From assembly GCA_963813525.1 (NCBI GenBank), contig CAWEZI010000005.1, positions 174,798-198,797 of the forward strand: a DNA stretch of 24,000 bases, in the 5' to 3' direction. The DNA is from an uncultured Acidimicrobiaceae bacterium (lineage in GTDB: Bacteria; Actinomycetota; Acidimicrobiia; Acidimicrobiales; RAAP-2). The notes beneath the pieces were generated by a model, which was not told the origin of the DNA, searched no databases, and saw nothing but the letters and a program-made list of their open reading frames with translations. Shown piece by piece: positions 2,847 through 16,691 of this stretch (position 1 is the stretch's first letter; every line of letters starts with the position of its first letter). A program made the position numbers and the translations under genes.

Positions 2847-3614
2847 ATGACCGGCATCGGGGGGTTGCCGATCGTGCCGGATGTGTCCTGTCCGTCGGTG
2901 GCTTCTGCCTTGGCCACGTCGGGACTCAGCACCGCCTGCAAGGTCACCTCGTCAGTCACATCGGCGGTCACCTCATCCGCCGTTTCCTCCGTCGCCTCAT
3001 CGCTGGCCGGGCTCGGAGTGGACAGTGTGCTCAATGCCGTCGGTAGTTGGGTCACCGCCGGGGCCAGCTGGCTGTTGGCTCAGATCGGCGCCGTCATCAC
3101 CAGCACCACCTCTGTGGATCTCGGAGCTTCGTGGTTCTTATCCAACTACGCCACGATGGTGGCCCTGGCCGGCGTGGTCATCGTCCCCATGCTGCTGCTC
3201 GGGATCATGCAGGCCGTCTACAGGCAGAACGGCTCGATGCTGATCCGCTCGGTGCTGGTCAATGTGCCCCTGGCCCTGCTGCTGACGGCAGTGGCCGTAA
3301 AGCTGGTGTCGCTGGGACTGGCGTTGACCGACACCATGAGTGATGTCGTCTCGCACGGGGCGGGGGTCGACGCCGGGCGATTCCTCTCGGAGGTGAGTGT
3401 CGGTTTGTCCGGGTCTGGCACCGCTCAACCCGCCGTGCCCACCTTCGTCCTGTTCATCGCCGGCCTGGTGGTCGTATTCGGTGCGCTGATGGTGTGGGTC
3501 GAGCTCCTCATCCGTTCCGCCGCCATCTACGTGGCCGTGCTCTTCCTGCCGCTGGTGTTGGCCAGCCTGGCCTGGCCCGCTATAGCCCACTGGTGCCGTC
3601 CACTGTTTACATAG
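2847..3614 (+). CDS. VirB6/TrbL-like polytopic membrane protein, 5' fragment (host codons 2847-3599; last 4 codons plus stop come from the inserted element)
   Basis: Multiple TM helices. The sequence ...AAIYVAVLFLPLVLASLAWPAIAHWCR is followed by PLFT-stop, read from element DNA. The natural continuation RLVDTLVALILGKFVIV... is found in frame at 17647 onward. Confidence 0.8.
   Translation: MTGIGGLPIVPDVSCPSVASALATSGLSTACKVTSSVTSAVTSSAVSSVASSLAGLGVDSVLNAVGSWVTAGASWLLAQIGAVITSTTSVDLGASWFLSNYATMVALAGVVIVPMLLLGIMQAVYRQNGSMLIRSVLVNVPLALLLTAVAVKLVSLGLALTDTMSDVVSHGAGVDAGRFLSEVSVGLSGSGTAQPAVPTFVLFIAGLVVVFGALMVWVELLIRSAAIYVAVLFLPLVLASLAWPAIAHWCRPLFT
3596..3600. other. attL crossover core (CCGTC) of the integrated element
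   Basis: CCGTC is identical at 3596-3600 and 17643-17647, and the bases immediately flanking it differ on both sides. Host-type coding sequence stops here. Confidence 0.75.
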
Positions 3615-3668
3615 ATACCTTGGCTTGGTAAGGTGGCCCTGCATGGAAACCAGCCATGACCAGGAAGA

Positions 3669-5165
3669 ATGCGAGCCGGCCCGGTGTCCGTCATGAGAGC
3701 GGCGATCTACTGTCGCATCTCGTCGGACCGGGACGACACCAAGCTCGGCGTGGAGCGGCAGGAGCAGGACTGTCGCCAGCTGTGTGCAGACGAGGGCTGG
3801 ACGATCGTCGGGCCATACATCGACAACGACATCTCCGCCGCCGACCCGACGAAGGTCCGGCCGGAGTACCGGCGCCTGCTGAAGGACATCGAAGGCGGGA
3901 TGGTAGACGCGGTGGTCGTGTGGGCTGAGGACCGCTTGCACCGGCAGCCGATCGAGCTGGAGGAGTTCGTCAAGACGTGCGACCAGGCGGGAGTGACCAA
4001 GCTCGTGACCGTGTCGGGGACGATCGACATGGGCACCGGCGACGGCATGATGATCGCTCGCATCAAGGGAGCAGTCGCCGCTGAGGAAGTCCGCAAGATG
4101 AAGCAGCGGGTTATGCGGCGCAAGCTCCAGAAGGCGCAGAACGGGGAGTACGCCGGTGGGCTCCGACCGTACGGCTTCGATGCAGACGGCGTAACGCACA
4201 AGCTCGACGAGGTCGAGCTGATCCACGAGGCCATGAGACGGGCACTGGAGGGAGAGAGCCTCCGGTCGGTGTCTGAGGACTGGAACAGCAGAGGTCTCCA
4301 GACGGTCCGCGGCAAGCGCTGGTCCCCGACGATGGTCAAGCGGCTGCTCGTGTCGCCTCGCATGGCGGGACTTCGCCAGCACCAAGGAGAGATCATCGGA
4401 GATGGGGCATGGGAGCCCGTGATCGACCGAGCGACGTGGGAGCAGCTCTGTGCAGTACTACTAGATCCGTCCAGGCGGAAGCCTCCAGCTTCACGCAAGT
4501 ACCCTCTCGTCGGAGTCCTGGTCTGCGCGCAGTGTGGGTCAGACATGAAGGCGATGCCGAACGGTGGGCGTAGGCGCTACGGCTGTAAGTCGGAGACCGG
4601 CGGTTGTGGGAAGACCTACGTCCTAGCGGACCCGATTGAGAGCGTGGTCTACGGGACGATCGTCCCACTGGCGGACTCGCCCGCCTTGAGAGACGCGGCG
4701 CTAGCGGAAGAGGAGAGCACGGCCGAGGAAGCCCGCTCCCTGGTGATGGAGAACGCCGCCGACGAGAAGATGCTCACCCAACTAGAGGACGATTACGCCG
4801 ACCGGACTATCGACAAGAAGGCATACATCCGGCAGAGCAGGCGCCTGCAGGATCGCATCGAGAAGAGGGACGGTCGGCTGACGGCGATGCGAGGGCAGTC
4901 CGCTCTCGATCGGCTCGGTGGTCACGTAGCGGAGCGGTGGGACGAGATGAGCGCAGAAGACCGCCGGATGATAGTGCTGGCGGTCGTGAACCAGGTGACG
5001 GTTGGGGCGCAGCTCGTGAAGGGCTCCAACAGGTTCGACCCGAAGCGGCTGGGATGGAGCTTCCGCTACGAGCAGCTGTCGAAAGTAGCCAGCAGCGGAG
5101 GTCTGATGGGTTGGCCGCCTAAGCCGTTCGACCTCGAAGAGGCGAGGCGCTTGCTGCTCGGGTAG
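3669..5165 (+). CDS. large serine recombinase (integrase)
   Basis: The canonical N-terminus MRAAIYCRISSD (catalytic Ser) begins at the ATG at 3693, which is probably the true start; the track start is 3669. Resolvase catalytic domain, recombinase domain, zinc ribbon CAQCGSDM...YGCKSETGGCGKTY and a C-terminal coiled-coil region are present. The gene lies directly inside attL. Confidence 0.93.
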   Translation: MRAGPVSVMRAAIYCRISSDRDDTKLGVERQEQDCRQLCADEGWTIVGPYIDNDISAADPTKVRPEYRRLLKDIEGGMVDAVVVWAEDRLHRQPIELEEFVKTCDQAGVTKLVTVSGTIDMGTGDGMMIARIKGAVAAEEVRKMKQRVMRRKLQKAQNGEYAGGLRPYGFDADGVTHKLDEVELIHEAMRRALEGESLRSVSEDWNSRGLQTVRGKRWSPTMVKRLLVSPRMAGLRQHQGEIIGDGAWEPVIDRATWEQLCAVLLDPSRRKPPASRKYPLVGVLVCAQCGSDMKAMPNGGRRRYGCKSETGGCGKTYVLADPIESVVYGTIVPLADSPALRDAALAEEESTAEEARSLVMENAADEKMLTQLEDDYADRTIDKKAYIRQSRRLQDRIEKRDGRLTAMRGQSALDRLGGHVAERWDEMSAEDRRMIVLAVVNQVTVGAQLVKGSNRFDPKRLGWSFRYEQLSKVASSGGLMGWPPKPFDLEEARRLLLG

Positions 5166-5197
5166 GCGTTGGCGGGGTAAGTGGGGGCATCGTAGGT

Positions 5198-5243
5198 GCT
5201 CGCAGGGGAGCGAAGAGAGATCCAGACAAACTCCCCCGCGAGC
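5198..5243 (+). terminator. stem-loop downstream of the integrase gene (possible terminator)
   Basis: GCTCGCAGGGGAG (5198-5210) pairs with CTCCCCCGCGAGC (5231-5243) at 12/13 positions with a 20-nt loop. There is no U-tract. Confidence 0.3.
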
Positions 5244-5458
5244 ATCCTGTAGAGGACATCGGCAAGCGCACGGAGACCTTGAGCGTGACCCGCTGGCACG
5301 CAGGGTCACTCGTGAGGTCCTGGCTGTGAGTCGATGTAGGTCTACGTCACCCTGCTGGGCACCCGCGCCGGGCGTACGCCAGGTGCAGCTTCCACCACCG
5401 CACGGAGGTAACTAGGGGTTAAAAAGTGCCTCTGACCTGCGAGTTTGCAGTAGTTGCG

Positions 5459-5467
5459 TGTTAAAAT
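5459..5467 (+). promoter_or_regulatory. candidate extended -10 promoter element for the rightward replication/early operon
   Basis: TGTTAAAAT (TGn + TAAAAT) sits in the only AT-rich patch of the 5166-5509 intergenic region, about 45 nt upstream of the SD AGGAGA and the ATG at 5510. Confidence 0.3.
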
Positions 5468-5509
5468 AAATCAGGAACTAGACCACAAGCACCACAGAGG
5501 AGAACCACC

Positions 5510-5704
5510 ATGTCACGAGAAGTCCAAGCGTTAACGCTCTCGCAAGTCGCCGAGCGGCTCAACATCACGTACGCCACCGTTTACGCAATGGTGCACGACG
5601 GCCGTCTGCGGTCGTTTCGGCTCGGTAACGGCAGCCACGCGCGATTTCGGGTCACGGAAGAGGACCTCACGGCGTTCGTCATGCGAGACATGGCGCAGCC
5701 GTGA
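5510..5704 (+). CDS. excisionase-family (MerR-like) helix-turn-helix protein; candidate recombination directionality factor or regulator
   Basis: 64 aa. LTLSQVAERLNITYATVYAMVHDGRLRSFRLG...RFRVTEEDLTAFV is the classic HTH_17/Xis-type pattern. A strong SD, AGGAGA, lies 6 nt upstream. Confidence 0.8.
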   Translation: MSREVQALTLSQVAERLNITYATVYAMVHDGRLRSFRLGNGSHARFRVTEEDLTAFVMRDMAQP

Positions 5705-5729
5705 GTCAAGGACAGCGACCAAGGAGACG

Positions 5730-5939
5730 ATGAAGATGAGTGATGGGAACAACCTGGCCATCGCACTTGCGAAGCGCGTCATCGACGTTCTCCACAATGA
5801 GCATGGGATGGAGCCTGGGATGGAGAGGCGCGCAGCGTTGAGTGACGTGATGGACCGCCTCGACTTCCTCTACGCGTCGACAGATTGGGAGATCCACGAG
5901 GCGATCGCCGCCTACTTCCGTGAGCGAGAGGAGACGTGA
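5730..5939 (+). CDS. hypothetical small acidic protein
   Basis: 69-aa ORF with SD AAGGAG at 5721-5726; the ATG at 5736 has better spacing than 5730. The stop overlaps the start region of the next gene (GTGATG at 5936-5941). Confidence 0.55.
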   Translation: MKMSDGNNLAIALAKRVIDVLHNEHGMEPGMERRAALSDVMDRLDFLYASTDWEIHEAIAAYFREREET

Positions 5940-7354
5940 TGGAGGACGACATCGACCCGAAGGCAGAGCGTGGCGACACGCAGCTCGCGCTAGCCGCCGC
6001 CGCTGTCGAGACGTTGCGTGGTCGAGCTGTATGGCGACAGACCCGCCGTGAGTGGTGGATGCGGGCCAAAGACGACCCATCGATGGTCTGGACGGAGGAA
6101 GACCGCGAAGGCGTAGGAATCGCGGTTCGCGATGTCGTCTTCGCGGCCAAGCCAGCCGCCGTTGCCGGAACCGTCGACGCTGTGAAGCGACTCGCCAGGC
6201 TAGAGCTGAGCGTGAGCGAGAGCGTCTGGGACCGACACCCGTGGCTGATGCCTTGCGCCAATGGCGTGCTCGATCTGCAGACTCAGACGCTGCTGAAAGA
6301 CCCAGCGCCCGAGCTGTACATCACGAAGGTGGCTCCCGCTGCCTATGACCCAGGTGCCGAACGTGACCTCGTTGAGGCGCACGTGAAGATGCTCTTCGAG
6401 GGAGACGAGGATCTAGCGCACTGCTTTCAAAAGCAGGTAGGCGCGGCGCTTGTGGGAGACGCAGAGTCCGAGAAGCCACAAGTGTTCGTCGTCCTCATCG
6501 GTCCATCCGGTGGTGGCAAAGGTACGACGACGCACGCACTCAGTAAGGCGCTGGGGAGCTACGTATCGTCCTTCAACGCCGGGGACTTCGTGAAGAAGAA
6601 GACCGAGCGCCACCTCGCTTGGATGCGGGACTTCGACGGAGTTCGCATCGCCGTCATTGAGGAGCTGAAACCCCAGCCACTGGACGTTGGCTTGGTCAAG
6701 AAGCTGAGTGGAGGCGACACGCTCGTCGCGAACGAGATGAGGATGGCCGACAGCAAATGGGTGCCGTCTCACACGATGTTCTTCACTTCGAACGTCGCTC
6801 CGGACTTTGACGGCGATGTGGTCGGTATTCCCCGCCGCTACGTACCGCTGGCCACCGGCCCGCAACGCCAAGACCCGGACGGAGACTACGTGAAGCGAGT
6901 GCTCCGTCAGAGCGAGGGATGGCTGGCGTGGGCGATCGAGGGCACGCGGATGTGGCTGGAGGAAGACGACGGTGGACTCATCACCCTGCCGAAGCGAGTG
7001 ATCGAACTCCGAGACTCGCACATCGTGGACGACGACCCGTTCTCTGAGTTCATCACAGAGTGGATCGAGGTACGTCCAGACAGCGCCTGCTGGCGCGACC
7101 AAGTGCACAGCGCCTTCCAGCGCTGGTCGATCGACCAAGGCGACTACAAAGTACGCGTTGGCAGTGACCCGCGCTGGAAGGCACTCCACACCCGGCTCGA
7201 CATGATCCCAGGCGTCACCCAGAAGCGGTCAAGCACACAGCGCGGGTGGGCCGGCATCCACGTGCGAGACCTCTCGCTGAGCGAACACTTCGGCGCGACC
7301 GGCCACAGCTCGCCACTGCAAGAGCTAGCTGACGGCCTCACTCGCAGGGGCTGA
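5939..7354 (+). CDS. phage/plasmid primase-helicase, P4/D5 family (D5_N plus SF3 NTPase domain)
   Basis: PCANGVLDLQTQTLLKDPAPELYITKVAPAAYDP is the D5_N signature. Walker A is LIGPSGGGKGT and Walker B-like is RIAVIEEL. SD AGGAG lies 5 nt before the ATG at 5939; the track start is the GTG at 5936. I see no separate primase catalytic domain in the short N-terminus. Confidence 0.88.
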   Translation: MEDDIDPKAERGDTQLALAAAAVETLRGRAVWRQTRREWWMRAKDDPSMVWTEEDREGVGIAVRDVVFAAKPAAVAGTVDAVKRLARLELSVSESVWDRHPWLMPCANGVLDLQTQTLLKDPAPELYITKVAPAAYDPGAERDLVEAHVKMLFEGDEDLAHCFQKQVGAALVGDAESEKPQVFVVLIGPSGGGKGTTTHALSKALGSYVSSFNAGDFVKKKTERHLAWMRDFDGVRIAVIEELKPQPLDVGLVKKLSGGDTLVANEMRMADSKWVPSHTMFFTSNVAPDFDGDVVGIPRRYVPLATGPQRQDPDGDYVKRVLRQSEGWLAWAIEGTRMWLEEDDGGLITLPKRVIELRDSHIVDDDPFSEFITEWIEVRPDSACWRDQVHSAFQRWSIDQGDYKVRVGSDPRWKALHTRLDMIPGVTQKRSSTQRGWAGIHVRDLSLSEHFGATGHSSPLQELADGLTRRG

Positions 7355-7588
7355 CACTCAAGGCTGACATTCGGTGACAGCCGTGTCAGCGCAAAGACAG
7401 CCTTTGAGTCCGAGGCTGACACCGCTATCGGATATGGGTAGGGCATGTTTGTGGGTACTTAGTGTCAGGTATGTCAAGTAGTTCTACAGGTTGACGAGAG
7501 ATTCCAGAGAAGCAGTCCCTTGAATACGAGATGTTCCCGGGAGTTACTCCCACTGCGAACCCAGCAAACTACCTGACACACCTGACAC
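7351..7588. repeat. iteron array (CTGACAC / GTGTCAG), putative origin of replication
   Basis: Exact CTGACAC at 7351, 7416, 7573 and 7582. The reverse complement GTGTCAG at 7383 and 7462. Variants CTGACAT at 7364 and GTGACAG at 7374. The array begins at the 3' end of the primase-helicase gene in otherwise non-coding DNA. Confidence 0.6.
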
Positions 7589-7673
7589 CGCTGAGCAGGG
7601 TACAGCGCTCTGACCTGGTACTTCGCGCTCGCGTGCGTGATACGATGGATCCCCCGGATTTGGAGGTTCTCAC

Positions 7674-7847
7674 ATGGATAAGCAGTTCAACGTAGGCGCA
7701 CGCGTCCTCGTTCAGCCCTACGGGATGGTAGGTGACGTGGAGGCGATCGGGCGAGGATGCGCTCGGGTGCGGGACGTGAAGTTGAACCGCAATGGCCGCC
7801 GCTCGTTCTACCACTTCCCTCTCGACTTCTTGAAGTTGGCCGTCTGA
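7674..7847 (+). CDS. small protein (57 aa), SH3/KOW-like by pattern
   Basis: ATG at 7674 with SD GGAGG 7 nt upstream. Product is MDKQFNVGARVLVQPYGMVGDVEAIGRGCARVRDV.... It is below the ORF-track size cut-off. The stop overlaps the next ATG (TGATG at 7845-7849). Confidence 0.5.
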   Translation: MDKQFNVGARVLVQPYGMVGDVEAIGRGCARVRDVKLNRNGRRSFYHFPLDFLKLAV

Positions 7848-7969
7848 TGGTGGCGGACGTGAGGCTGCCCTCGCTGTTCAGACCGAGGCAGAGGCCAGTG
7901 GAGCTGTGGCGGGAGATTCGAGACCATCGAGACGTGGCTCGCTTGTACGTACAGGTGCTGTGGACGTGA
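7847..7969 (+). CDS. small hypothetical protein (40 aa)
   Basis: The ATG overlaps the upstream stop. Third-position GC is about 80 percent by my manual count, the strongest coding bias in this segment. Confidence 0.45.
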   Translation: MVADVRLPSLFRPRQRPVELWREIRDHRDVARLYVQVLWT

Positions 7970-7982
7970 CGGTCGAAGCGAC

Positions 7983-8348
7983 GTGCGCACACTTCGAGGC
8001 AGGCGTGAGATGTGGCCTTCCTTCGATCGGAGGCTCTTGTCGTTGCGCAGAGCACTCGCGACCTCGCACCTGGGTTCGCACGAACAGATTGGAGACAGCG
8101 TGAACGTGTACTGCTTAGGTGGTCTCGTTGGTGAGCTTCTGTCCGTTGAGAACGGGACGGCTCGCGTGAAGTTGGAGAACGGCTCCGTGTTGGAGACCCG
8201 AGAGGAGCACGTTCGTGAGGTCGACGGACAGTTCAACGTGGCGGGAAACGGCGACTGGGCGCAGCCCGCAGATGGAGAGGCGAGCAACGTCATCTCGTAC
8301 CCGCTACCAAAGCCGACGCCCGCTTGGGTTGAGGAGCTCATCGCGTGA
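7983..8348 (+). CDS. hypothetical protein with SH3/KOW-like core paralogous to the 7674 gene (start uncertain: GTG 7983 or ATG 8010)
   Basis: IGDSVNVYCLGGLVGELLSVENGTARVKLENG aligns by eye with VGARVLVQPYGMVGDVEAIGRGCARVR of the 7674 product. The C-terminus is acidic. Confidence 0.5.
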   Translation: MRTLRGRREMWPSFDRRLLSLRRALATSHLGSHEQIGDSVNVYCLGGLVGELLSVENGTARVKLENGSVLETREEHVREVDGQFNVAGNGDWAQPADGEASNVISYPLPKPTPAWVEELIA

Positions 8349-8769
8349 CTTCAGCCGGGGCACGCGCTGCTGCCATTGGAGGACAGACCTCTTGGGGCCA
8401 GGATGCGCACATCGCGTGGCGGGTACCTGGTATGCGTGTGCGGGGCATGTCATACGTGCTGACGTGGATGCGTCACGTGCCATCACGCGAGTGGGCCAGT
8501 TGCCGGCCGATACGCGTGCACCGAGTGCGACGACCAGTACCCTTTCGTATGTTCCCCGCATCATGTGCGCACTGGAAAGTCCGGGGGATCCGCGGGGACA
8601 CACGAGCGCCCAACGAGAACACAGGTTCACGTTACGAGCCACACGTCGCTCCAAGTGCACACCGCGTGAGACGTGAGACCGTCCCCCGAGGCCACCAGGC
8701 TTGCCCAGAGACCACCAAGTGCCCTCGATTGATGCTCACTAGCCGGTCTGGCTAATCAACCAGCACAGG

Positions 8770-9285
8770 ATGACCAAGGAGAAGATGACCATGACTGCTC
8801 AACTGCCCGTTCAGTACGTCGAGGACGGGCTCGTGATCGTGCTCGATCGTCGTCACGCGCGCTCACTCGTTCGCGCTCTCCGTTCATACGAATCGTCGCT
8901 GCTGCAGGATGGTCGACTCGACTTGGCAGACGAACTTGGGGAGATGTGGAAGTCGTTTCATCTCCACGTCGACCTCATCGAAGAAGTCGAAGACATCTTG
9001 GAGAGCCACGAAGCCAACGAGTCTGTACAATCTGATCAGCAGCCCTGGTCGGTAGCTCGCTTGGTCGCGGTCACTGGCCTCACGAAGCGCACCGTGAACC
9101 GCCGATGCGCCGAAGGCAAGTTGCGTGCGACGAAGGTTGGCGGCGAATGGCGAGTTGACCACGCTACGGCTGTCGGTTTCGTTGAGGACTGCAAGCGAAG
9201 TGCTGCAGAGCAGGACCCGATCCGCACCTCGACGATGCGCCCCGAGTCCGGCCACTTCGCCACACCTCACTACCCCTCCCGATAG
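8770..9285 (+). CDS. DNA-binding protein with C-terminal excisionase-type HTH (possible packaging/small-terminase-like or regulatory role, unproven)
   Basis: 171-aa ORF. WSVARLVAVTGLTKRTVNRRCAEGKLRATKVGGEWRVDHATAVGFV is an HTH_17-type motif. SD AAGGAG at 8776-8781 favours the ATG at 8785 or 8791 as the true start. Confidence 0.7.
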   Translation: MTKEKMTMTAQLPVQYVEDGLVIVLDRRHARSLVRALRSYESSLLQDGRLDLADELGEMWKSFHLHVDLIEEVEDILESHEANESVQSDQQPWSVARLVAVTGLTKRTVNRRCAEGKLRATKVGGEWRVDHATAVGFVEDCKRSAAEQDPIRTSTMRPESGHFATPHYPSR

Positions 9286-9293
9286 GAGAACCA

Positions 9294-9446
9294 ATGCCGT
9301 CCTCACCGGACAACACCGACCTGTCTGCGTACCAGGCTCAGGCCGACGCACGACAGGCCGCACAGCACACCGACATCCATGCGCGAACAGCTCCTCCCGA
9401 ACCCGAACCCGTTCCCGTCGCCGTCCCCGAAGTGGAGCCAAGTTGA
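9294..9446 (+). CDS. small Pro/Ala/Glu-rich protein (50 aa)
   Basis: SD AGGAGA at 9284-9289, ATG at 9294. The stop overlaps the TTG of the next ORF (TTGA at 9443-9446). It is below the ORF-track cut-off. Confidence 0.4.
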   Translation: MPSSPDNTDLSAYQAQADARQAAQHTDIHARTAPPEPEPVPVAVPEVEPS

Positions 9447-9679
9447 AGCGAACGACCGGGACGCGAACCGACAGAATCATTCGCGCTATCACCCCCGACC
9501 TACGTACCTCTCCGACCGGCACCACCGGCCCGGAGACGACCGTCTTGCGCACGACCGGCAAGGTCGCCAAGGACGACGGCACGCGGGCCATCAGCGTCAC
9601 CATCGACGGCAGCCCGGCCGTGCTCACCCTCAACAGTCACGATCTGGTGAAGCTGCTCGGCTCCACCCCACCTAAGTAG
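9443..9679 (+). CDS. small hypothetical protein (78 aa) immediately upstream of the capsid gene
   Basis: The frame is shared with track ORF 9125-9679. A TTG start is coupled to the upstream stop. Product ends ...TTVLRTTGKVAKDDGTRAISVTIDGSPAVLTLNSHDLVKLLG. It finishes 9 nt before the capsid gene ATG, and the intervening sequence contains the capsid SD. Confidence 0.4.
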   Translation: MKRTTGTRTDRIIRAITPDLRTSPTGTTGPETTVLRTTGKVAKDDGTRAISVTIDGSPAVLTLNSHDLVKLLGSTPPK

Positions 9680-9688
9680 GAGCAACGC

Positions 9689-11056
9689 ATGTCTCTCAAT
9701 GATGTCCTGATCGCCCGCCGAGCGGACGCACTCGAAGCCGCAAGTCGCCTGTCCGAAGAGGCCACGAAGCGTGGTGCCCTCCGCGACGCTGCCAATGAGC
9801 AGGCGATGGAAGACGCACTCGACACGGTCGTCGACACGGACGCAGCCTTGCGGGCGCTCTCCAACGTGAAGGTGCGCAAGGAGCCCCGCGTCTACGAGCG
9901 TGACTCCCGCCATTCGTACTTCTTCGACCGCGCAGCCGCCATTTCCTCGACGCCGATCCCCGGTCTGTCCGACCACGCAGCGAACGAGCGTCTCGCCCGT
10001 CACGAGCAGGAGGAAGCCGTCGAGCAGTCGACCGCGTTCCGCCAAGGCAAGGCGGCCCGTACTCTCGGCGCCTCAGGTGTGATCGTCAACGACTCGTCTT
10101 CGTACGCCGGTCCGGACGGCTCGATCCAAGCCCGTACAGGTGACCTCACCTCTGCGATCGCAGGTGGCCCCGTCCCAACGTGGATCTTGGACGAGTACTA
10201 CGGCGCACTGTACGCAGCGTCGCCGCTGCTGGCCCGAGTGAAGAACCTGCCGCTCCCTCCGACCGCGTTCAGTGTCACCGTCCCAGGCTTCACCGGAGCG
10301 GACGTCACGTTCGACCCGGTCGTGACGGAGAACACCGGCGTCGACGACATCATGGGGACGACCTCCGAGGACGTGACACACGACGTCTCGAGCTTCGCCG
10401 GGCAGACGATCATCAGCCAGCAGCTGCAGGACAGAGGCCCCTCATTCGACCTGTTCATCACGCAGTCCTTCGCCGAAGCGACCGCCGCCTCCATCGAAGC
10501 GCAGCTGGTCAATGGCGACGGCAGCGACAACCAGTTCCTCGGACTTCTCAACGTCCCCGGACTCGTGCCGCTCACGCCCGGCGGCCCAGGTCTCGACGTT
10601 GTTGGGTTCGCCCAGCAAGTCGGCAACTTGGTCGGCGCAGTCGCGGACACTCGCAATCGCATGCCGTCGATCATCGCGATGCGGCCGTCGCGGTACGCCT
10701 GGCTGGCCGGCATTCCCAACTCGAATGGAGTTTCGAACCAACTGCTGGGACTCGGAGGCGTGACGGACTCGGACAACGATCTCTACGGCCCGCTCGGCGG
10801 GGTTGGAGTCGTCCTTACCAACGCCATCCCGAACGACCTCGGAGACGATAACAACCAGGACGCAGTGCTGGTCCTTCGAGTGCAGGACATCCTGCTCCTC
10901 GTGTCTGACCCCATCTTCACCGTCTACGAGCAGACCTACGCAAACCAACTGAGCGTCATCCTCGGCACTCACGGTTACGCGACCGCCGTCACCGACCGCT
11001 ACCCGCTGGGCATCGGTGCACTGACCGGCGCTGGCCTCGAAGTCCCGACCTACTAG
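9689..11056 (+). CDS. phage major capsid protein, HK97 fold, with N-terminal coiled-coil scaffold (delta-like) domain
   Basis: 455 aa. The N-terminal ~110 aa are helical, Ala/Glu/Arg-rich and delta-domain-like. The body carries the HK97-family signature region AASIEAQLVNGDGSDNQFLGLLNVPGL (compare E..xLNGDG....GLL). SD is GGAG. Third-position GC is strong, roughly 75-80 percent by manual count of the 5' end. Confidence 0.85.
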   Translation: MSLNDVLIARRADALEAASRLSEEATKRGALRDAANEQAMEDALDTVVDTDAALRALSNVKVRKEPRVYERDSRHSYFFDRAAAISSTPIPGLSDHAANERLARHEQEEAVEQSTAFRQGKAARTLGASGVIVNDSSSYAGPDGSIQARTGDLTSAIAGGPVPTWILDEYYGALYAASPLLARVKNLPLPPTAFSVTVPGFTGADVTFDPVVTENTGVDDIMGTTSEDVTHDVSSFAGQTIISQQLQDRGPSFDLFITQSFAEATAASIEAQLVNGDGSDNQFLGLLNVPGLVPLTPGGPGLDVVGFAQQVGNLVGAVADTRNRMPSIIAMRPSRYAWLAGIPNSNGVSNQLLGLGGVTDSDNDLYGPLGGVGVVLTNAIPNDLGDDNNQDAVLVLRVQDILLLVSDPIFTVYEQTYANQLSVILGTHGYATAVTDRYPLGIGALTGAGLEVPTY

Positions 11057-11063
11057 GAGCAAC

Positions 11064-12026
11064 ATGGACAACCACACACGACGCAGGCTGATGCGCGAAG
11101 CAGGTCTCCCGACCGATGGCACTGAGTGGCGGTCTGCGGGGAACCCTCGACAGCTCGCTGCCGAAGCCCAAGGCATCGAGTACCGGGCCGTTCAAGCCCT
11201 GCACGCTGACTCAACGGACGCTTCTGTCCGCGAGCTTCAAGCGCATCTTCGCTTTGCCAAGCTGCACCCTCCATCAACGCGCACTCGCCTTCCCTGGCTC
11301 TCGACTTTCACGGACGAGAACTCCGCCAAGCTGCGCAACATCGAGGTGAACAGCGCTGCCACCATCGTCGAGCTGGTCCAGCGCGGTTCTACTCCTGCCC
11401 AAGCAGCTCGCGTCGTCACCTCACAGACCCGCCAACTGTACCGAGACGAAGCCGCTGCCGAAGCCATCTGGCTCCGAGTAGCGGAACTTGCCGAGCACAA
11501 GACGAAGCGCAACGAGCGGAAGGGCCGACGCAAGTCCTTCGCCGAACGACCGCGCCTCGTTCAAGAGGGCTGTCAAGCGTCTCGATGCCGCTCCGAAGCC
11601 ACCGCTCGTTTCGGATGTCGGCTTCGTCTCAGTCGACGGTCCTGCGTCCCCGACAGCGGGTCGTCAGAGCATCCGCAACAACTCGTCCAGCCGCCCACTC
11701 GGCGGCCATCGAAGAGGATCACAATCATGAGCTGCGTCATCAGCGTTCCAGCAGGTTCAACGGCGGTGGCCAGCGGAGTCGTCCTCGACAACGAAGTACC
11801 GCTCACCACCCACACCGGGGTGTGCACAGGGTCTTCCGGCATCGAGTCAGGAGCATGTACGCTCGACGTCAGCCAAGACGGAGTGGAGTGGATCAGCACC
11901 GCGCTCGCCGCTACCGCCTCTACGGTCACCAAGGCGACAGTCACGGGCGCTTACCGCTTCGTGCGAGCTTCCATCGGCACCACCATCGAAGGCGGTTCCG
12001 TTGAGGTGACGGTGGCTTCTGTCTAG
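11064..12026 (+). CDS. hypothetical protein(s): a 320-codon open frame that may be two genes or a fusion (N-terminal HTH-like part; C-terminal beta-rich ~99-aa part with its own SD/ATG at 11727)
   Basis: SD GGAG precedes the ATG at 11064. The N-part contains NSAATIVELVQRGSTPAQAARVV (HTH-like). In segment 11520-11726 third-position GC is equal in all three frames (about 64 percent), and all three frames are open from 11585 to 11727. SD GAAGAGGA precedes the ATG at 11727, giving MSCVISVPAGSTAVASGVVLD...VEVTVASV. Confidence 0.5.
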   Translation: MDNHTRRRLMREAGLPTDGTEWRSAGNPRQLAAEAQGIEYRAVQALHADSTDASVRELQAHLRFAKLHPPSTRTRLPWLSTFTDENSAKLRNIEVNSAATIVELVQRGSTPAQAARVVTSQTRQLYRDEAAAEAIWLRVAELAEHKTKRNERKGRRKSFAERPRLVQEGCQASRCRSEATARFGCRLRLSRRSCVPDSGSSEHPQQLVQPPTRRPSKRITIMSCVISVPAGSTAVASGVVLDNEVPLTTHTGVCTGSSGIESGACTLDVSQDGVEWISTALAATASTVTKATVTGAYRFVRASIGTTIEGGSVEVTVASV

Positions 12027-12052
12027 AACGCCGGAGCGGTTCACCCCCGGTA

Positions 12053-12088
12053 GCGGGCGGTTGGTGATTGGTCTCGCGGGCCGCCCGC
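12053..12088 (+). terminator. GC-rich stem-loop after the capsid module (possible terminator)
   Basis: GCGGGCGG (12053-12060) pairs with CCGCCCGC (12081-12088) with a 20-nt loop, 27 nt after the stop at 12026. There is no U-tract. Confidence 0.3.
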
Positions 12089-12360
12089 AACTTCGCCTGT
12101 CGAACCTCCCTCCTTGGTCAACGACAGACGACGACAGGTTCCTTTCCCCGTCGCAGCGTTGAAGCGCGGCCGAGGCGTCACGAACCTCTGCTGATGACTC
12201 CGCACTCTCACGCCCGGTCATCATTCACGTGGCCGGGCGTGAGTGGTCCCTCGGGATGGTCCCAGTCTGGCGTCTGGGGACAGATTGTGGTTCCTATCGC
12301 CGTCCCGATTCCTCAGTCACTCCGGTGGCCCGCCAACTACTGAGCCCATCCTTGCCATCC

Positions 12361-12400
12361 ATGAACACCATGAAGACCATGAAGACCATGAAGACCATGA
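12361..12400 (+). repeat. 9-bp tandem repeat ATGAAGACC (about 4.4 copies), each unit carrying an ATG in frame with the downstream gene
   Basis: The sequence is ATGAACACC ATGAAGACC ATGAAGACC ATGAAGACC ATGA. It ends 38 nt upstream of the SD-supported ATG at 12439. Confidence 0.9.
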
Positions 12401-12438
12401 TATCCTTGGATTGTTGGAATCTAAGGATAGGAGCAGAT

Positions 12439-12759
12439 ATGGATAAAGCAGTTCCGAACGGGCTGTGCTGGTGCGATTGCGGGGGGCATCCGAACTCGGG
12501 CTCCTTCTTTCTCCCCGGCCACGACAAGCGAGCCGAGCGGTACTTGGCGATCATCGAAAACTCGGAGCCCATCGCTGACCGCCTGGCAGCCAAGGGATAC
12601 ATTCCCGGAAAGAAGAGCTTGCGAGATGACACGTTGGAGGCCGACGACTCCTACGAGGAGTGCGGTCGCCTGACGCTCGACGGCGATCCGTGTTTGGTCA
12701 TCGGGAAGGGCATCGGGATGCGCCGGCATCGGGCCGACGACACTCGCCACACCGTGTAA
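12439..12759 (+). CDS. small Cys-rich protein with CWCDCGG...FFLPGHDKR motif (putative zinc-binding, function unknown)
   Basis: 106 aa. SD GGATAGGAG at 12424-12432, ATG at 12439. The motif LCWCDCGGHPNSGSFFLPGHDKRAE resembles a recurrent uncharacterised CxCGCG...F.PGHD.R family that I recall from actinobacteria and their phages. A terminator hairpin follows. Confidence 0.65.
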   Translation: MDKAVPNGLCWCDCGGHPNSGSFFLPGHDKRAERYLAIIENSEPIADRLAAKGYIPGKKSLRDDTLEADDSYEECGRLTLDGDPCLVIGKGIGMRRHRADDTRHTV

Positions 12760-12784
12760 CCGCTCGCAAAAACAAGCAGTAACG

Positions 12785-12816
12785 AGAAGGGCCGTGCCTC
12801 CGGGTGCGGCCCTTCT
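12785..12816 (+). terminator. intrinsic terminator-like hairpin (could act bidirectionally)
   Basis: AGAAGGGCCG (12785-12794), a 12-nt loop, then CGGCCCTTCT (12807-12816): a perfect 10-bp stem followed by GTCGTTCTCGTT. It lies 26 nt after the stop at 12759. Confidence 0.55.
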
Positions 12817-12890
12817 GTCGTTCTCGTTAGCAGGTAGCCTCGTTTTCGAGGTGGCAAGTCCGGGATTGTTAGGGCACGGCGAGGGTCTAT

Positions 12891-13046
12891 ATGGCTGGCG
12901 AGAAGGTCAATGTCCAATCAAATGGCAAACCTCCTCCACGGTGGCGGTGGATATGCACCTGCGGGAACATTGGGAAGTGGGCGACCTACGCTCAGGCGAA
13001 GGTCCGAGGAGAGTCTCACCTCGGAAGTCATCGACTCCGTGATTGA
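12891..13046 (+). CDS. possible small protein (51 aa) with WICTCG motif
   Basis: ATG at 12891 preceded by GAGGG 5 nt upstream. Product is MAGEKVNVQSNGKPPPRWRWICTCGNIGKWATYAQAKVRGESHL.... It is below the ORF-track cut-off, has weak codon bias, and is convergent with vsr. Confidence 0.25.
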   Translation: MAGEKVNVQSNGKPPPRWRWICTCGNIGKWATYAQAKVRGESHLGSHRLRD

Positions 13047-13051
13047 AGCGG

Positions 13052-13501
13052 TCAGGTTGGGCGACGGCTCCGTACAGCTCTAGCAATTCGATCGGCTGCT
13101 TCAGTCGCGGATTCGTGCTCCCACACCCGAATCGGCAGCCACCCAGCCTCGATGAGCCGCTCGTCCGTGTCTGCGTCCCGTTCGCGGTTACGCTCGATCT
13201 TCTCAGGCCAGTACCAACCGTTGACCTTGTGCTCACGCCGCCCGTGCTCCGGGCATCCGTGCCAGAAACACCCGTCGGCGAAGGCGGCGACGCGGGCCTT
13301 TCTGAATACAAGATCTGCTGTCCTGCGCAGTTCGGGCAATGGACGAACGTTGACGCGATATCGGAGCCCGTTGGCATGAACCGCACGGCGGAGCGCCAGC
13401 TCGGGCTTCGTGCCCCGCGACAACTGTGCCTGCATCTTTCTCCGCACGAGCGGCGAACTCGCGAATGGCAGTCGCGGATTCTCCAATGTTGAGCCTGTCA
13501 T
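13052..13501 (-). CDS. vsr: very short patch repair endonuclease (Vsr)
   Basis: 149 aa with TKPELALRRAVHANGLRYR...ADLVF...AAFADGCFWHGCPEH...W..KIERNRERD...GW..IRVWEHE, the canonical Vsr motif set. The start overlaps the upstream stop (TAATG). Confidence 0.92.
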   Translation of the reverse strand: MTGSTLENPRLPFASSPLVRRKMQAQLSRGTKPELALRRAVHANGLRYRVNVRPLPELRRTADLVFRKARVAAFADGCFWHGCPEHGRREHKVNGWYWPEKIERNRERDADTDERLIEAGWLPIRVWEHESATEAADRIARAVRSRRPT

Positions 13502-13818
13502 TACCGCCGAGGTTTGCGTGGCGACCCAGGCTTATACGAAAACACTCCAGGCCGGACTCTCTGGAAGCGAGCATCGTTCCAAAGTGCGGTGTAGACGTTT
13601 TTGCGCCTCTCCTTCAACGTGTCCCCACGCAACACAGCGCCTCCGTGGCGAAGGACAGTCCAGAAGTCATCCATGGATAGCTCGGAAAGCCCGTGCTCAG
13701 TGATATAGTCGATGAAGATCTGACGAATCTCTTCCCTGCTCATGTAGTTCGTCGTGTCGACGAAGTTGTCGATCTCATTGAAGTCAATCAAAAGCCCGTC
13801 TCCAGCAGTTTTTTCCAC
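13501..13818 (-). CDS. small HARE-HTH-like protein embedded in the RM operon (start GTG 13818 or ATG 13743)
   Basis: MSREEIRQIFIDYITEHGLSELSMDDFWTVLRHGG...KNVYTALWNDARFQRVRPGVFSYK fits the HARE-HTH pattern (...L..D.RF..v..G.y.l) as I remember it. With the GTG start it overlaps the upstream gene by 31 nt. Confidence 0.6.
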   Translation of the reverse strand: MEKTAGDGLLIDFNEIDNFVDTTNYMSREEIRQIFIDYITEHGLSELSMDDFWTVLRHGGAVLRGDTLKERRKNVYTALWNDARFQRVRPGVFSYKPGSPRKPRR

Positions 13819-14663
13819 ATGTCGTCACCTGGTTGGATCTGGTACTGGGATCTGAAGTCGGATGCCAGTTCCGTCTTTTTCCCTTTCAACAGGTCATCGA
13901 TCGGTTTGCCGGCCTCGGCGGCGAACATTGCTTCACCTTCGGCCATTCCGTTGAAGATATCGACGTGGGCGTCCTCGTAGCCGGCCAGCCAATCCCAGAA
14001 CTCTCTGCCAACAAGGATCGCCACCTTGTCGTCGGGATAATCGCCTTTGACAATGTCGGGCTTATTGGAGAGCTGCTCTCTTCGCCCATAGCTGACTGCG
14101 TAGATGACCGGATCATTCCCATGCGTAACAAATCCGGCGACGTTTGCATGCATTTGGTGTGCCATCGTGTCGTTGATCGTCATGGGCCCAGCCTTTATCG
14201 AGACCAAGTGCCTTTTTACCTCACCTGTGGCCGGGTTCGGCTTTGTGGCTTCCTTGTCGATTTCCTTGAAAGCTTCCCACTGGTGATCATCCTCACGCTC
14301 GGGAGGTGTAATCGCTCCGAAAAGAGGCGGCAGGTACAGGTCAACTAACCAGCCGTACGCCGTTTCGTTCCCTGCCACGAGAGTGGCATTGACCACGTAT
14401 TCGATTACGTCTTCAGGAGTGTCCAAGCCGTGTATCTGCCGGATCGTTCTAAGCATCAAGATGTTTAGGCTGAGATCCTTCAGCTTGAGCTTTTTGATTT
14501 TCCCATAGCGCCTTGTCAGAAAGTCGCGAGTCTCGCCCGCAACGAGCGTTCGGATCTTCGCTCGCCGTTCTTCGAGCGGCAATGCGGCAGCAGCTTGTCC
14601 GAGGGCCACTCGAGCAGCTTCTCCTGCCTTGACTGCGTCGGATCGCTTCTTTGGACCGGCCAT
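13788..14663 (-). CDS. putative type II restriction endonuclease partner of the adjacent m5C methyltransferase
   Basis: 291 aa. SD GGTGGGAG lies 4 nt before the ATG. It is located between the MTase and vsr on the same strand. A possible PD-(D/E/S)xK-like element is IDKEA...EVKRHLVSIKAGP (SxK as in the Cfr10I-type variant). The assignment rests on context plus a weak motif. Confidence 0.55.
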   Translation of the reverse strand: MAGPKKRSDAVKAGEAARVALGQAAAALPLEERRAKIRTLVAGETRDFLTRRYGKIKKLKLKDLSLNILMLRTIRQIHGLDTPEDVIEYVVNATLVAGNETAYGWLVDLYLPPLFGAITPPEREDDHQWEAFKEIDKEATKPNPATGEVKRHLVSIKAGPMTINDTMAHQMHANVAGFVTHGNDPVIYAVSYGRREQLSNKPDIVKGDYPDDKVAILVGREFWDWLAGYEDAHVDIFNGMAEGEAMFAAEAGKPIDDLLKGKKTELASDFRSQYQIQPGDDMWKKLLETGF

Positions 14664-14726
14664 GTGGCTCCCACCTCAATCCCAACCTTTGGGAGCCTAG
14701 TGACTGAGCGGGAGGGAGACTGGTGA

Positions 14727-16040
14727 CTACGCGGAGACGGTGCCCGCTTGGTAGTACCTTGACCTTGAGTTTTCGTCTTTGGACGACCAGACGAAGGCCT
14801 CGCCGGCCTTCCACCATCGCCTTGTTCTGACGTGCGAGCCCAGGTAGATCTTCCTAAACTGCTCTGCATCCGCCGGTGGCCGTCGTCGACGGGTTCCAAG
14901 CACTTCCAGCCTGTCGGCTACCAGGTCCGCGGCGATACGACCAAGCCGCGCCGGAACTGCGTTGCCTGCCTGCTCGTACTGCTGCTGCGTGGACCCGGAA
15001 AATACCCAATCGCGGGGAAACTCCTGGATCGCTGCGTATTCGGCGATCGAGAGTACGCGAACCTCATCGGGATGGCACATCGAGGTGCTGGCGTGATTGG
15101 GCATGGTGGTCAAGGTCGGACAGGGCAGGTCCCAGCTAAGCCGTCGCCACCACCCAGACCGGCCACCTTTTGCGTCGTACGCTCGACCCATCGACTCTCG
15201 CGCTACATCGGGAGGCAACGTGCGCCAGTTTCCGCCGGGCGGCACCATTGCCAAATACGACTTCTTCCGCGGGCTGAAGTCAAGCAGCGTGGGCGACGGT
15301 TCCTTTAGATGGCCTATGGCATCGAACAACGTGCGGTGCGGCAAAAGTGAACTTTCACCTCGGTTGATTCGCTCAGGCGGTCCATGCGTCGCCCCCGGAA
15401 AATCAATGACATCTCCGAGACGATTGCCGACCATGAGCACGCGCTCTCTCAGCTGAGGTGCTCCATAGTTGACGGCGTTAACTTCGAAGCAGTCGATCCG
15501 GTATTTGCCGTCCGAGAGCCGAAACAGGTCTTCGGCCCAGCGTTCCACGACGGAGCCCGGAACCTCGTCGGTCTGCAGCGGCGCACCACCCTTTGCCGGC
15601 CGCTCCGCTATGGGGCGGTGACGGAGGGCCGCAGACAGAAGTCCGCGAACGTTCTCCAAGACGAAGTATTTGGGACGCAGAGCAAGAACCCAGTCCATAT
15701 AGTTCCAAAGAAGCTCGCCCCTTGAATCCTCCACGGACTTACGCCGACCTGCTGTGCTAAAAGCCTGGCATGGTGGTCCACCGACGAGCAGATCGAGTTG
15801 TCCAGCTCGCAAACCGAGCTCTTTCATCATTCCCGATGCTGATACGCCTCGAATGTCGCCCTGAATGATTTGCGTCTGAGCCGACCCAATGCGTCCTGCA
15901 TCTCGGTTAAGTCCAATCGTCTCGCAGAACACTGGGTTGACCTCAAGGCAAGCCAGAAGCTCGAAACGCTTGGTTTCGTGAATTCCGACATCCAATCCAC
16001 CGGCACCTGAGAACAACGAGAGCGAAGTGAATCTGTCCAC
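14727..16040 (-). CDS. DNA (cytosine-5)-methyltransferase
   Basis: 437 aa with motif I LFSGAGGLDVG, motif IV GGPPCQAFS, motif VI ENV, motif VIII QLRERV and motif X GNAVP. The start codon is GTG. Confidence 0.95.
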   Translation of the reverse strand: MDRFTSLSLFSGAGGLDVGIHETKRFELLACLEVNPVFCETIGLNRDAGRIGSAQTQIIQGDIRGVSASGMMKELGLRAGQLDLLVGGPPCQAFSTAGRRKSVEDSRGELLWNYMDWVLALRPKYFVLENVRGLLSAALRHRPIAERPAKGGAPLQTDEVPGSVVERWAEDLFRLSDGKYRIDCFEVNAVNYGAPQLRERVLMVGNRLGDVIDFPGATHGPPERINRGESSLLPHRTLFDAIGHLKEPSPTLLDFSPRKKSYLAMVPPGGNWRTLPPDVARESMGRAYDAKGGRSGWWRRLSWDLPCPTLTTMPNHASTSMCHPDEVRVLSIAEYAAIQEFPRDWVFSGSTQQQYEQAGNAVPARLGRIAADLVADRLEVLGTRRRRPPADAEQFRKIYLGSHVRTRRWWKAGEAFVWSSKDENSRSRYYQAGTVSA

Positions 16041-16154
16041 TTATGCCCCTTGACCTGGTACGAGACCTTTAGACATGGGCATACGTCTGACTCTATCCCG
16101 TGGCTATGTCACGGTCGTGGCAAGCGCGGCGTCAGTCGCCGTAACTGGCCCGTT

Positions 16155-16397
16155 CTACGAGAACGGGCTTCCGCCAGCCTTTGCAGTGCCCGTACCCGTC
16201 CGCCCGCTTCGTCCCTGAGGCTTGTTGATGCTCTTGCAATCTGGACCCAAGCGATGGAAGAGCAAAGCTGAATCCTCATCCTCAACTTCGGTGTCGAACC
16301 GAATCCGCTTTGAGCAGAGAGGACATGAAGTAGTCACCTTGACTTGTCGGGGCTTCGGATCGTCTGCCACTCCGGCAACGCTAGCGCAGCCATGCAC
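16155..16397 (-). CDS. possible small protein with CPLC...H...C zinc-knuckle-like spacing (start uncertain)
   Basis: 80-aa track ORF (GTG start) between the TM peptide gene and the MTase gene. Only modest codon bias and no clear SD. Confidence 0.3.
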   Translation of the reverse strand: MHGCASVAGVADDPKPRQVKVTTSCPLCSKRIRFDTEVEDEDSALLFHRLGPDCKSINKPQGRSGRTGTGTAKAGGSPFS

Positions 16398-16409
16398 CTA
16401 ACATTCGGG

Positions 16410-16574: not shown

Positions 16575-16634
16575 CTTTCACTCCTTCCCTGTTTAGTTGT
16601 CCCTCCGCTTCACTATGCCGGATGGGTGTGACGC

Positions 16635-16654: not shown

Positions 16655-16691
16655 TGCTGGAACATCAGTTGTGGTTGGGCCGGCCGTTGGT

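Follow-up and report, generated by a model that had tools for sequence, protein, structure and literature searches.

A 14-kb integrative element with an HK97-family capsid gene in a conjugation gene of an uncultured Acidimicrobiaceae bacterium, a candidate helper-dependent phage satellite

The 24,000-nucleotide stretch of DNA analysed here (the window), from an uncultured Acidimicrobiaceae bacterium (contig CAWEZI010000005.1, positions 174,798 to 198,797), is of high GC content (0.60-0.70 overall) and holds an integrated element of about 14.05 kb, at positions 3601-17647. The element carries an integration and replication module, the gene for an HK97-family major capsid protein with two companion genes, and a restriction-modification cargo, and all plausible genes between 3669 and 12026 lie on the plus strand. 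An earlier description of this DNA (the sequence-only reading) had placed the element at 3601-12026; its start is confirmed here, but 12026 proves to be the end of the core genes only, the true end lying near 17647. The boundaries are defined by the following features.

2847-3600, plus strand: 5' part of an SCO6881-family membrane protein gene, the split gene of a type IV secretion system (T4SS) conjugation cluster
3596-3605: attL core candidate CCGTCCACTG, equal to attR at 9 of 10 positions
17643-17652: attR core candidate CCGTCGACTG, pairing with the attL core
17648-18741, plus strand: 3' part of the SCO6881-family gene, its in-frame continuation reading RLVDTLVALILGKFVIVAVLSLAAG

The ORF (open reading frame) at 2847-3614 is terminated by a stop codon that stems from the element sequence. 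Both junctions have the core CCGTC[C/G]ACTG in common, with about 14,047 bp between the two copies, and fusing the attL and attR sides restores the reading frame, AHWCR being followed across the junction by RLVDTLVALILGKF (RLVD), so that the rejoined site reads CACTGGTGCCGTCGACTGGTCGAC. The protein rejoined from 2847-3600 and 17648-18741 gives one uninterrupted NCBIfam match to NF047967 (SCO6881_fam) over residues 59-373, which spans the junction at residue 251. The resumption of the frame at about 17648, the shared junction cores and this single hidden Markov model stretch together establish an element of about 14.05 kb that splits a T4SS gene: it has been inserted by its large serine integrase into the SCO6881-family gene of an actinobacterial conjugative T4SS cluster. 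Downstream of the split gene follow an SCO6880-family gene (258 bits), a VirB4-like ATPase and a VirD4-type coupling protein, the latter with its best plasmid match (40% identical) in Iamia; a tblastn search with the rejoined SCO6881 protein against plasmids returned no match. As long as the element stays in place, its insertion should keep the SCO6881 gene inactive. The cluster surrounds the element, at 2847-3600 and 17648-23493.

The left part of the element holds the genes and sites for integration and replication.

3669-5165, plus strand: large serine integrase (Resolvase 104 bits, Recombinase 53 bits, Zn_ribbon_recom 34 bits; phrog_95, E=7.6e-107)
5510-5704, plus strand: excisionase-like HTH_17 (helix-turn-helix, HTH) protein of 64 amino acids (aa) (PF12728 40.3 bits, cut-off 27; excisionase families phrog_66 and phrog_2907)
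5730-5939, plus strand: 69-aa ORF overlapping the helicase start (coding GC-phase pattern 0.61/0.37/0.79)
5936-7354, plus strand: 472-aa D5_N / P4-type primase C-terminal helicase of superfamily 3 (SF3) (PF08706 53 bits; TIGR01613 'primase_Cterm' 132 bits, cut-off 109)
7351-7588: cluster of seven CTGACAY iterons, a candidate replication origin (these 238 bp hold 7 of the window's 10 sites)

All three Pfam domains of the integrase exceed their cut-offs, as befits a large serine recombinase, and the HTH_17 protein is, to judge by its sequence, a candidate recombination directionality factor. Profile searches with Pfam, PHROGs and NCBIfam, the collections used throughout, gave no family match for the 69-aa ORF. 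The helicase matches phrog_1156 (E=1e-52) at profile positions 434-828 of 855 and, more generally, aligns to the C-terminal halves only of primase PHROGs 770-855 positions long; the same searches detected no primase domain in it. Priming could rely on host DnaG or on the 69-aa ORF that overlaps the helicase start. The iterons lie directly 3' of the helicase gene, in non-coding DNA that is 73% identical through 7588 to the corresponding region of a sister element (L001, introduced below), where 6 of 9 CTGACAY sites sit at the same place. The order of serine integrase, Xis-type HTH protein, small ORF, P4/D5 helicase and iterons read earlier from the letters is thus borne out by profiles and site counts.

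Some 2 kb beyond the iterons lies the capsid gene with its two companions.

9689-11056, plus strand: HK97-family major capsid protein with an N-terminal extension (PF05065 40.5 bits, cut-off 24.2; TIGR01554 53 bits, cut-off 27.5; phrog_2263, E=8.6e-19)
11064-11730, plus strand: ORF A, an element-specific helical protein with a 1-nt frameshift (sole homologue the L001 protein P0012, E=4.5e-27)
11727-12026, plus strand: ORF B, a 99-aa beta-jellyroll protein of galactose-binding-like/carbohydrate-binding-module type (AlphaFold2, AF2, model with pLDDT 97.7)

The assignment of the first of these to the HK97 family is secure, since its profile matches exceed the curated cut-offs over most of the domain, PF05065 covering residues 161-400 and TIGR01554 residues 24-407. 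The best GenBank phage matches are mycobacteriophage capsid proteins (Baka, Thibault, Optimus, Bipper) at 26% identity, and the capsid protein of a complete phage from our locus set (L065) is 30% identical. Relative to phage capsid proteins the N-terminus is extended by about 55 residues; together with the TIGR01554 alignment that starts at residue 24, this makes a delta-like scaffold domain plausible at the sequence level. We also considered whether the protein might be an encapsulin, a reading that we reject, as the matching profiles are phage capsid families and the neighbouring ORF B is a phage head-module gene.

Positions 11064-12026, annotated as one ORF of 320 aa, prove to be two genes, the first of them frameshifted. 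The homologous region of L001 is interrupted by a stop codon, and the frame conserved with it moves from 0 to +1 near 11541-11545, such that NDRASFKRAVKRLD...GFVSVDGPASP in the window aligns with ERRAAMKAAVKRIE...PFAVTVGGPTSD in L001; the +1 frame then closes at a TGA overlapping the ATG of ORF B (ATGA, 11727-11730). From this frame switch and the TGA/ATG overlap it follows that ORF A is frameshifted and that ORF B is a separate, translationally coupled gene. The frameshift, which merges ORF A with ORF B into the annotated 320-aa ORF, is either a true mutation or a sequencing or assembly error; L001 too has apparent frameshifts, in its capsid gene (around 11011) and in ORF B (around 12545). 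A single-sequence AF2 model of the 320-aa ORF reached a pLDDT of 46.5, with confident long helices (a helical hairpin) at residues 77-160 only, and was excluded from the fold search on account of this low confidence. A word-based homologue search with the 320-aa ORF returned the query only, whereas a full HMMER search found relatives; a PDB sequence search with ORF A gave nothing useful. The idea that ORF A might be a diverged S78 protease was rejected, there being no similarity to the protease of a related element (L002) or to the other seeds.

ORF B belongs to a family of 47 homologues found with HMMER, mostly stand-alone proteins of about 105 aa. Foldseek matches its model to carbohydrate-binding modules, to prophage XepA/YomS and to many small uncharacterised phage proteins, and some of its homologues match DUF6385, F5/8 type C or the C-terminal 100 positions of phrog_9522 'major tail protein'; ORF B itself found no match in the phage database. 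In the complete phage L065, whose genes include those for portal, S78 protease, a 499-aa capsid protein, head completion and the tail tube, a homologue of 53% identity is the very next gene after that of the capsid protein, ahead of the connector genes. Model and context taken together, ORF B is a head-module gene, most plausibly for a capsid decoration protein, and no tail component in its own right. ORF A, being element-specific, helical and set between two head genes, is a candidate size-determining or scaffold factor, though this is speculation.

The remaining morphogenesis genes of a tailed phage were not found. None of the ORFs between 5730 and 12759 matches a portal, large terminase, protease or tail family in Pfam, PHROGs or NCBIfam, and no recognisable connector gene is present in the element. 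As a positive control, portal, S78-protease and large terminase (TerL) seeds taken from phages and elements with related capsid proteins (L056, L057 and L002) were run with phmmer over all ORFs of at least 50 aa in 60 loci. These seeds recovered the order TerL-portal-protease-capsid in more than 30 IMG/VR loci, and found no portal, protease or TerL anywhere in the 24-kb window. Small terminase (TerS) seeds likewise found no TerS in the window by phmmer, and the profile searches gave no Rpp or Ppi. The lack of recognisable portal, large terminase, prohead protease and tail genes noted in the sequence-only reading is thus confirmed by these searches, which also covered the small ORFs between helicase and capsid gene. 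Searched as a whole against the phage database, the element gave no match.

Relatives of this element are rare. The capsid protein has 10 matches among 5.8 billion clustered proteins, and profile scans of genome contigs with the capsid alignment and the helicase alignment found no relative. The closest one is L001, on a 68-kb metagenome contig, which has the same gene order, with amino acid identities of 43% for the integrase, 78% for the helicase, 58% for a 57-aa ORF, 50-67% for the capsid protein, 50% for ORF A and 72% for ORF B. Between the 57-aa ORF and the capsid gene L001 has an HTH_17 protein gene, as in the window, and between helicase and HTH protein it has two extra genes, for an HNH-like protein (a weak match) and a P27-type TerS (phrog_83, E=4e-8; Terminase_4, E=0.0025); a small sigma70_r2-like ORF is also present. 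The HNH-like and TerS genes would suggest cos-type, HK97-like packaging for the family. Pairwise dN/dS values between window and L001, rough because dS is saturated, are 0.15 for the helicase, 0.17-0.46 for the capsid protein, 0.21 for ORF B and 0.28 for ORF A, and values in this range (0.15-0.5) indicate a module kept by purifying selection. The restriction-modification cargo of L001 differs, consisting of an N6_N4 methylase and NA-iREase1 at 13332-14684, and with an unrelated restriction-modification system in the window (13500-16000), the position 3' of the head genes looks, from these sequences, like a cargo hotspot.

Further relatives grade into ordinary phages. L059 has a 46% identical helicase, an HNH-like gene and a capsid protein that is distantly related, and here too there is no portal. 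The capsid relatives at 34-36% identity (L002, L050, L055) lie in portal-less contexts that have nothing else in common with the window. In L002 (JGI Ga0255363_100040, 5534-18698; capsid protein 34% identical) an S78 protease gene comes after, and not before, the capsid gene, next to genes for an AAA_25 helicase, a SocA_Panacea protein and a tyrosine integrase, and no portal or TerL was found in this interval. At 33% identity and below, the capsid relatives are ordinary siphophage genes, in modules of the order TerL-portal-S78-capsid-connector-tail.

Between helicase and capsid gene of the window lie several small ORFs and one stretch with no coding signature.

7674-7847, plus strand: 57-aa conserved small protein (58% identical to L001 6653-6820; coding GC-phase pattern)
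8010-8348, plus strand: 112-aa small protein (gene called in the identical Logan contig L004; coding GC-phase pattern)
8349-8769: stretch of about 420 bp without coding signature (GC flat over the three codon phases; no gene called in L004)
8770-9285, plus strand: 171-aa HTH protein (HTH_17 21.7 bits, below the 27-bit cut-off; TIGR01764 22.7 bits; phrog_66 and phrog_1840)
9294-9446, plus strand: 50-aa ORF of uncertain coding status (called in L004; atypical GC phase)
9443-9679, plus strand: 78-aa ORF directly upstream of the capsid gene (GC3 0.85; weak similarity to L001 9591-9968, E=2e-4)

No family match was obtained for the 112-aa protein in the profile searches; by eye only, it is beta-rich and SH3/KOW-like. 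A homologue of the 50-aa ORF was not found. The ORF for an HTH protein at 8770-9285 is indeed present, but its HTH match is weak and below threshold (excisionase-type, 21.7 bits), the L001 protein at the same position scoring 26.6 bits with HTH_17. A PDB sequence search with the 171-aa protein gave nothing useful; on its sequence it may be a regulator, with a small-terminase-like role also possible. The non-coding stretch at 8349-8769 occupies the position where L001 has its HNH-like and P27-type TerS genes. A search of 7850-8790 for remnants of these two genes found no similarity at E<5, except for a Cys-rich patch (E=1.4), and the intergenic region itself has no match in the phage database. 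The stretch could be what is left of decayed genes, or else a region that acts in cis, perhaps in packaging. It contains Cys-rich reading frames, including one of 88 codons with an internal TGA (8403-8668).

We consider the element to be, with somewhat better than even confidence, an integrative phage satellite of 14 kb in a high-GC actinobacterium, PICI-like (phage-inducible chromosomal island, PICI) or phiRv-like and dependent on a helper phage, and we thus retain the helper-dependent satellite of the sequence-only reading as the best account of the locus. It is favoured because a compact gene order is conserved in L001, the module is under selection, a capsid gene occurs in isolation from the other morphogenesis genes, and the element has integration and replication modules of its own. 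Several points weigh against it. The family is rare, 5.8 billion proteins yielding about 10 relatives of the capsid protein and 9 of the helicase; we identified in the window neither a small terminase nor a cos or pac site, nor a master repressor or anti-repressor target; and a delta-like extension occurs here with no cognate protease, so that maturation would need a compatible helper protease. The small ORFs (50, 57, 69, 78, 112 and 171 aa) could include divergent packaging proteins, the ORF A frameshift and the non-coding stretch at 8349-8769 may mean that the element is partly decayed, and the satellite life cycle is deduced from the genes of the 24-kb window alone.

The same frameshift and the roughly 420 bp without coding signature, at the place where L001 has HNH-like and TerS genes, would suit a decayed remnant of an ordinary temperate siphophage that kept integrase, replication and capsid genes, lost the other morphogenesis genes and has no particle mobility, as would the capsid relatives of 25-33% identity in complete phages. 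We regard this as unlikely. Independent random decay would not keep the compact order that recurs in L001 and partly in L059 (43-78% amino acid identity, dN/dS 0.15-0.5), all of the closest capsid relatives (at least 34% identity) are found in portal-less contexts, and the element has clean ends, the host frame being restored on joining. Alternatively, the locus might be a defence island in which the capsid homologue serves mainly to interfere with phages, poisoning or redirecting their assembly in the manner of Ccm but without transfer, beside the restriction-modification genes. Ccm is known to block helper phage reproduction (PMC5052747), the cargo comprises restriction-modification and Vsr genes, and no packaging gene of the element's own was detected, yet integrase, Xis, helicase and iterons indicate a mobilisable, self-replicating element, the TerS and HNH-like genes of L001 make sense for packaging only, and the known cases of capsid-homologue interference occur within satellites and not in place of transfer; this explanation appears quite improbable.

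Bolder still, and in our estimation very improbable, is a helper-independent, tailless and portal-less HK97 particle or an encapsulin-like compartment, after the 'twilight' mini HK97 elements. The preprint on the latter describes members some 9 kb long that combine a capsid gene, an integrase and a helicase or RepA and have no terminase, portal or tail (bioRxiv 10.1101/2025.06.18.659913), and the small sigma70_r2-like ORF of L001 could be taken in the same sense. The capsid protein, however, matches Phage_capsid and TIGR01554 and not the encapsulin families, its relatives and ORF B stem from the head modules of ordinary tailed phages, and the TerS and HNH-like proteins of L001 work with a large terminase and a portal.

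Under the satellite reading, a life cycle may be envisaged as follows. A helper phage would trigger excision through the integrase and the Xis-like protein, whereupon the SF3 helicase would drive replication, starting at the iterons. A siphophage of the L065 type, resident or infecting and with an ORF B homologue, would be the foremost candidate for such a helper. On the helper portal, the element's capsid protein would assemble, alone or mixed with helper capsid protein (as with Ccm of SaPIbov5), resulting in satellite-sized shells (T=3 to T=4 would suit a genome of 14 kb) that would be matured by the helper protease and decorated by ORF B, with ORF A perhaps acting as a size-determining or scaffold-like factor. 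Helper terminase would then package the element DNA and helper tails would complete the particle. L001 would add its own HNH-like protein and P27-type TerS to this scheme, the window element relying wholly on the packaging specificity of the helper, and the restriction-modification cargo would shield the host and aid retention of the element. There is a rather small chance that the strategy is intermediate between those of Ccm-type PICIs and capsid-forming PICIs (cf-PICIs), with the element's own delta-domain capsid protein, decoration protein and ORF A building an entire small shell, and portal, protease, terminase and tail coming from the helper; in that event the sister lineage may represent a stepwise gain or loss of the HNH-like and TerS genes.

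Comparison with known systems places the satellite candidate closest to phiRv1 and phiRv2 of Mycobacterium tuberculosis and the related candidate PICIs of mycobacteria. SatelliteFinder classes phiRv1 and phiRv2 as PICIs (PMC10085698), and mycobacterial candidate PICIs reported by the Hatfull laboratory are defined by an integrase together with a major capsid protein, one of those shown having a serine integrase (PMC10654092). Likened by gene content, these elements and ours share a size of 10-14 kb, an actinomycetotal host, a serine integrase, a small HTH Xis, a P4/D5-type 'primase' of about 470 aa and an HK97-type capsid protein, all in one direction, and the lack of portal and tail genes. 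The likeness to phiRv1 drawn in the sequence-only reading thus holds for the order integrase, Xis, primase-type helicase, capsid, but does not extend to terminase and protease, both of which phiRv1 encodes (Rv1578c and Rv1577c, respectively; PMC12268328). With four of six phiRv1 features present and these two missing, the window element is more reduced than phiRv1; it differs further in its target, the SCO6881 gene, and in having ORF A, ORF B and the restriction-modification and Vsr cargo in addition.

Cos-type Staphylococcus aureus pathogenicity islands (SaPIs) encode a lone HK97-fold capsid homologue, Ccm, which redirects capsid size and interferes with the helper; in SaPIbov5 this protein takes up the pentamer positions in small T=4 capsids, and helper growth is blocked by it (PMC5052747, PMC8569155). 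Such islands resemble the present element in having a single HK97-fold capsid homologue, portal, protease, terminase and tails being taken from the helper by the SaPI, and differ from it in their Firmicutes host, tyrosine integrase and Stl-type regulation, with no sequence relationship; the decoration-type protein and the element-specific helical protein beside the capsid gene set the window element further apart. The cf-PICIs (bioRxiv 10.1101/2022.09.08.507074) are alike in encoding their own HK97-type capsid protein and, as regards L001, in the HNH-like and TerS genes. They have all the genes of head and packaging (portal, protease, connectors, terminase) and steal nothing but tails, whereas capsid protein and ORF B are all that is present here, no portal, protease, connectors or terminase subunits having been detected. 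Of the traits of PICIs in general, we find a size of 10-15 kb with integrase and att sites, an AlpA/Xis-type regulator and a primase-type helicase with adjacent iterons. A divergent master repressor is missing, no such gene being found between integrase and xis, and the core genes (3669-12026) all read in the plus direction. Of the packaging and hijacking module, TerS, Rpp and Ppi were not detected and a capsid homologue with a putative Ccm-like role is present.

The EPIPs of Mycolicibacterium aichiense, isolated satellites of about 11 kb, have a serine integrase, an HTH protein and a capsid protein and form small capsids with a helper prophage (PMC12822802); compared by gene content, they differ in encoding TerS, head-to-tail adaptor and stopper, scaffolding and tape measure proteins, none of which were found here. 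P4-like satellites share with the element an integrase, an AlpA/Xis-type HTH protein, a P4 alpha-type helicase domain with an adjacent origin, and a hotspot of defence cargo. Unlike it, P4 has no capsid gene and has a tyrosine integrase, and the helicase described here lacks the primase half of P4 alpha; PHROGs and Pfam reveal no homologue of Sid, Psu, Delta or Eps in the element, which consequently lacks the P4-like core set. Mini HK97 elements that have neither tail nor portal have, finally, been reported from metagenomes in a 2025 preprint (bioRxiv 10.1101/2025.06.18.659913). In view of these precedents (Ccm in cos-type SaPIs, phiRv1/2 as PICIs, the mycobacterial candidate PICIs and the EPIPs), a capsid-bearing mini-element with no other virion genes is an already known kind, and the suggestion that its gene content is unlike that of known satellites has to be abandoned. 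Particular to this element are the extreme reduction to a capsid protein and one head-module gene, the contrast with the HNH-like/TerS-bearing L001, the swap of cargo at a fixed position and the insertion into a conjugation gene.

Should the element prove active, the range of capsid-encoding satellites would come to include an actinobacterial lineage outside the mycobacteria. Together with its relatives it would offer a natural series, from a capsid protein only (window) to a capsid protein with HNH-like and TerS genes (L001), with a portal-less element that has a protease and complete phages among the distant capsid relatives, and this series could reveal in what way satellites lose or gain the genes for head and packaging. 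It also presents a satellite candidate that sits within a gene of a conjugative T4SS and disrupts it, and an exchange of restriction-modification systems at a fixed cargo position. Current views are not overturned by it, capsid-homologue satellites and defence cargo both being established already.

The part of the element to the right of ORF B holds this cargo and the genes next to attR.

12352-12759, plus strand: Cys/His-rich ORF of about 135 aa with an N-terminal MKT repeat (GC phase 0.52/0.46/0.76)
13052-13501, minus strand: Vsr very-short-patch repair endonuclease (TIGR00632 114.6 bits, cut-off 97.9; PF03852)
13501-13818, minus strand: 105-aa ORF between the Vsr and restriction endonuclease genes (no significant match)
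13788-14663, minus strand: type II restriction endonuclease, EcoO109I-like (PF14511 31.9 bits, cut-off 22.5; PADLOC REase_II, E=2.4e-16)
14727-16040, minus strand: C-5 cytosine DNA methyltransferase, Dcm (PF00145 156 bits; TIGR00675 151 bits; PADLOC MTase_II, E=3.7e-81)
16692-17105, minus strand: DUF6941 protein (PF22091 38.5 bits on residues 163-271 of a 290-aa ORF)
17290-17574, plus strand: possible ribbon-helix-helix protein (GC3 0.89; motif ISVRIPTEEAERLQQLAAAEGQSVSEIIRRAV by eye, no profile confirmation)

The defence-type cargo anticipated from the letters is confirmed by profiles as Vsr, an EcoO109I-like endonuclease and a Dcm methylase, and with the endonuclease gene adjoining that of a methyltransferase of cognate type, it constitutes a type II restriction-modification system. 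Nowhere in the window is the GC content lower than in this part (0.53-0.58). A 23-bp tandem repeat, GGGAGACTAGTGACTAAGCGGGA (1.9 copies, with ACTAGT), extends at 14691-14734 from the methylase gene's 3' end into the gap between methylase and endonuclease, and may be a regulatory site of the system. The Cys/His-rich ORF gave no family match in the profile searches; its MKT repeat (MKTMKTMKTM) is encoded by a 9-bp tandem repeat, CCATGAAGA, present in 4.7 copies at 12359-12400, which provides several in-frame ATGs and where slippage could alter the length of the protein. The 290-aa ORF on the minus strand is probably an over-extended DUF6941 gene of about 137 aa, GC phase favouring the short form; the frame of the possible ribbon-helix-helix protein overlaps this 290-aa ORF, and a PDB sequence search with the putative protein was uninformative. 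Rfam and tRNA scans found nothing, and a scan for promoters and terminators gave no signal exceeding background. Outside the element, the SCO6881 protein ends in a long Gly/Ser-rich low-complexity tail with GSGSGW repeats, and upstream of the T4SS cluster, at 211-2315 on the minus strand, lie genes for an OmpR-type response regulator and a PAS histidine kinase.

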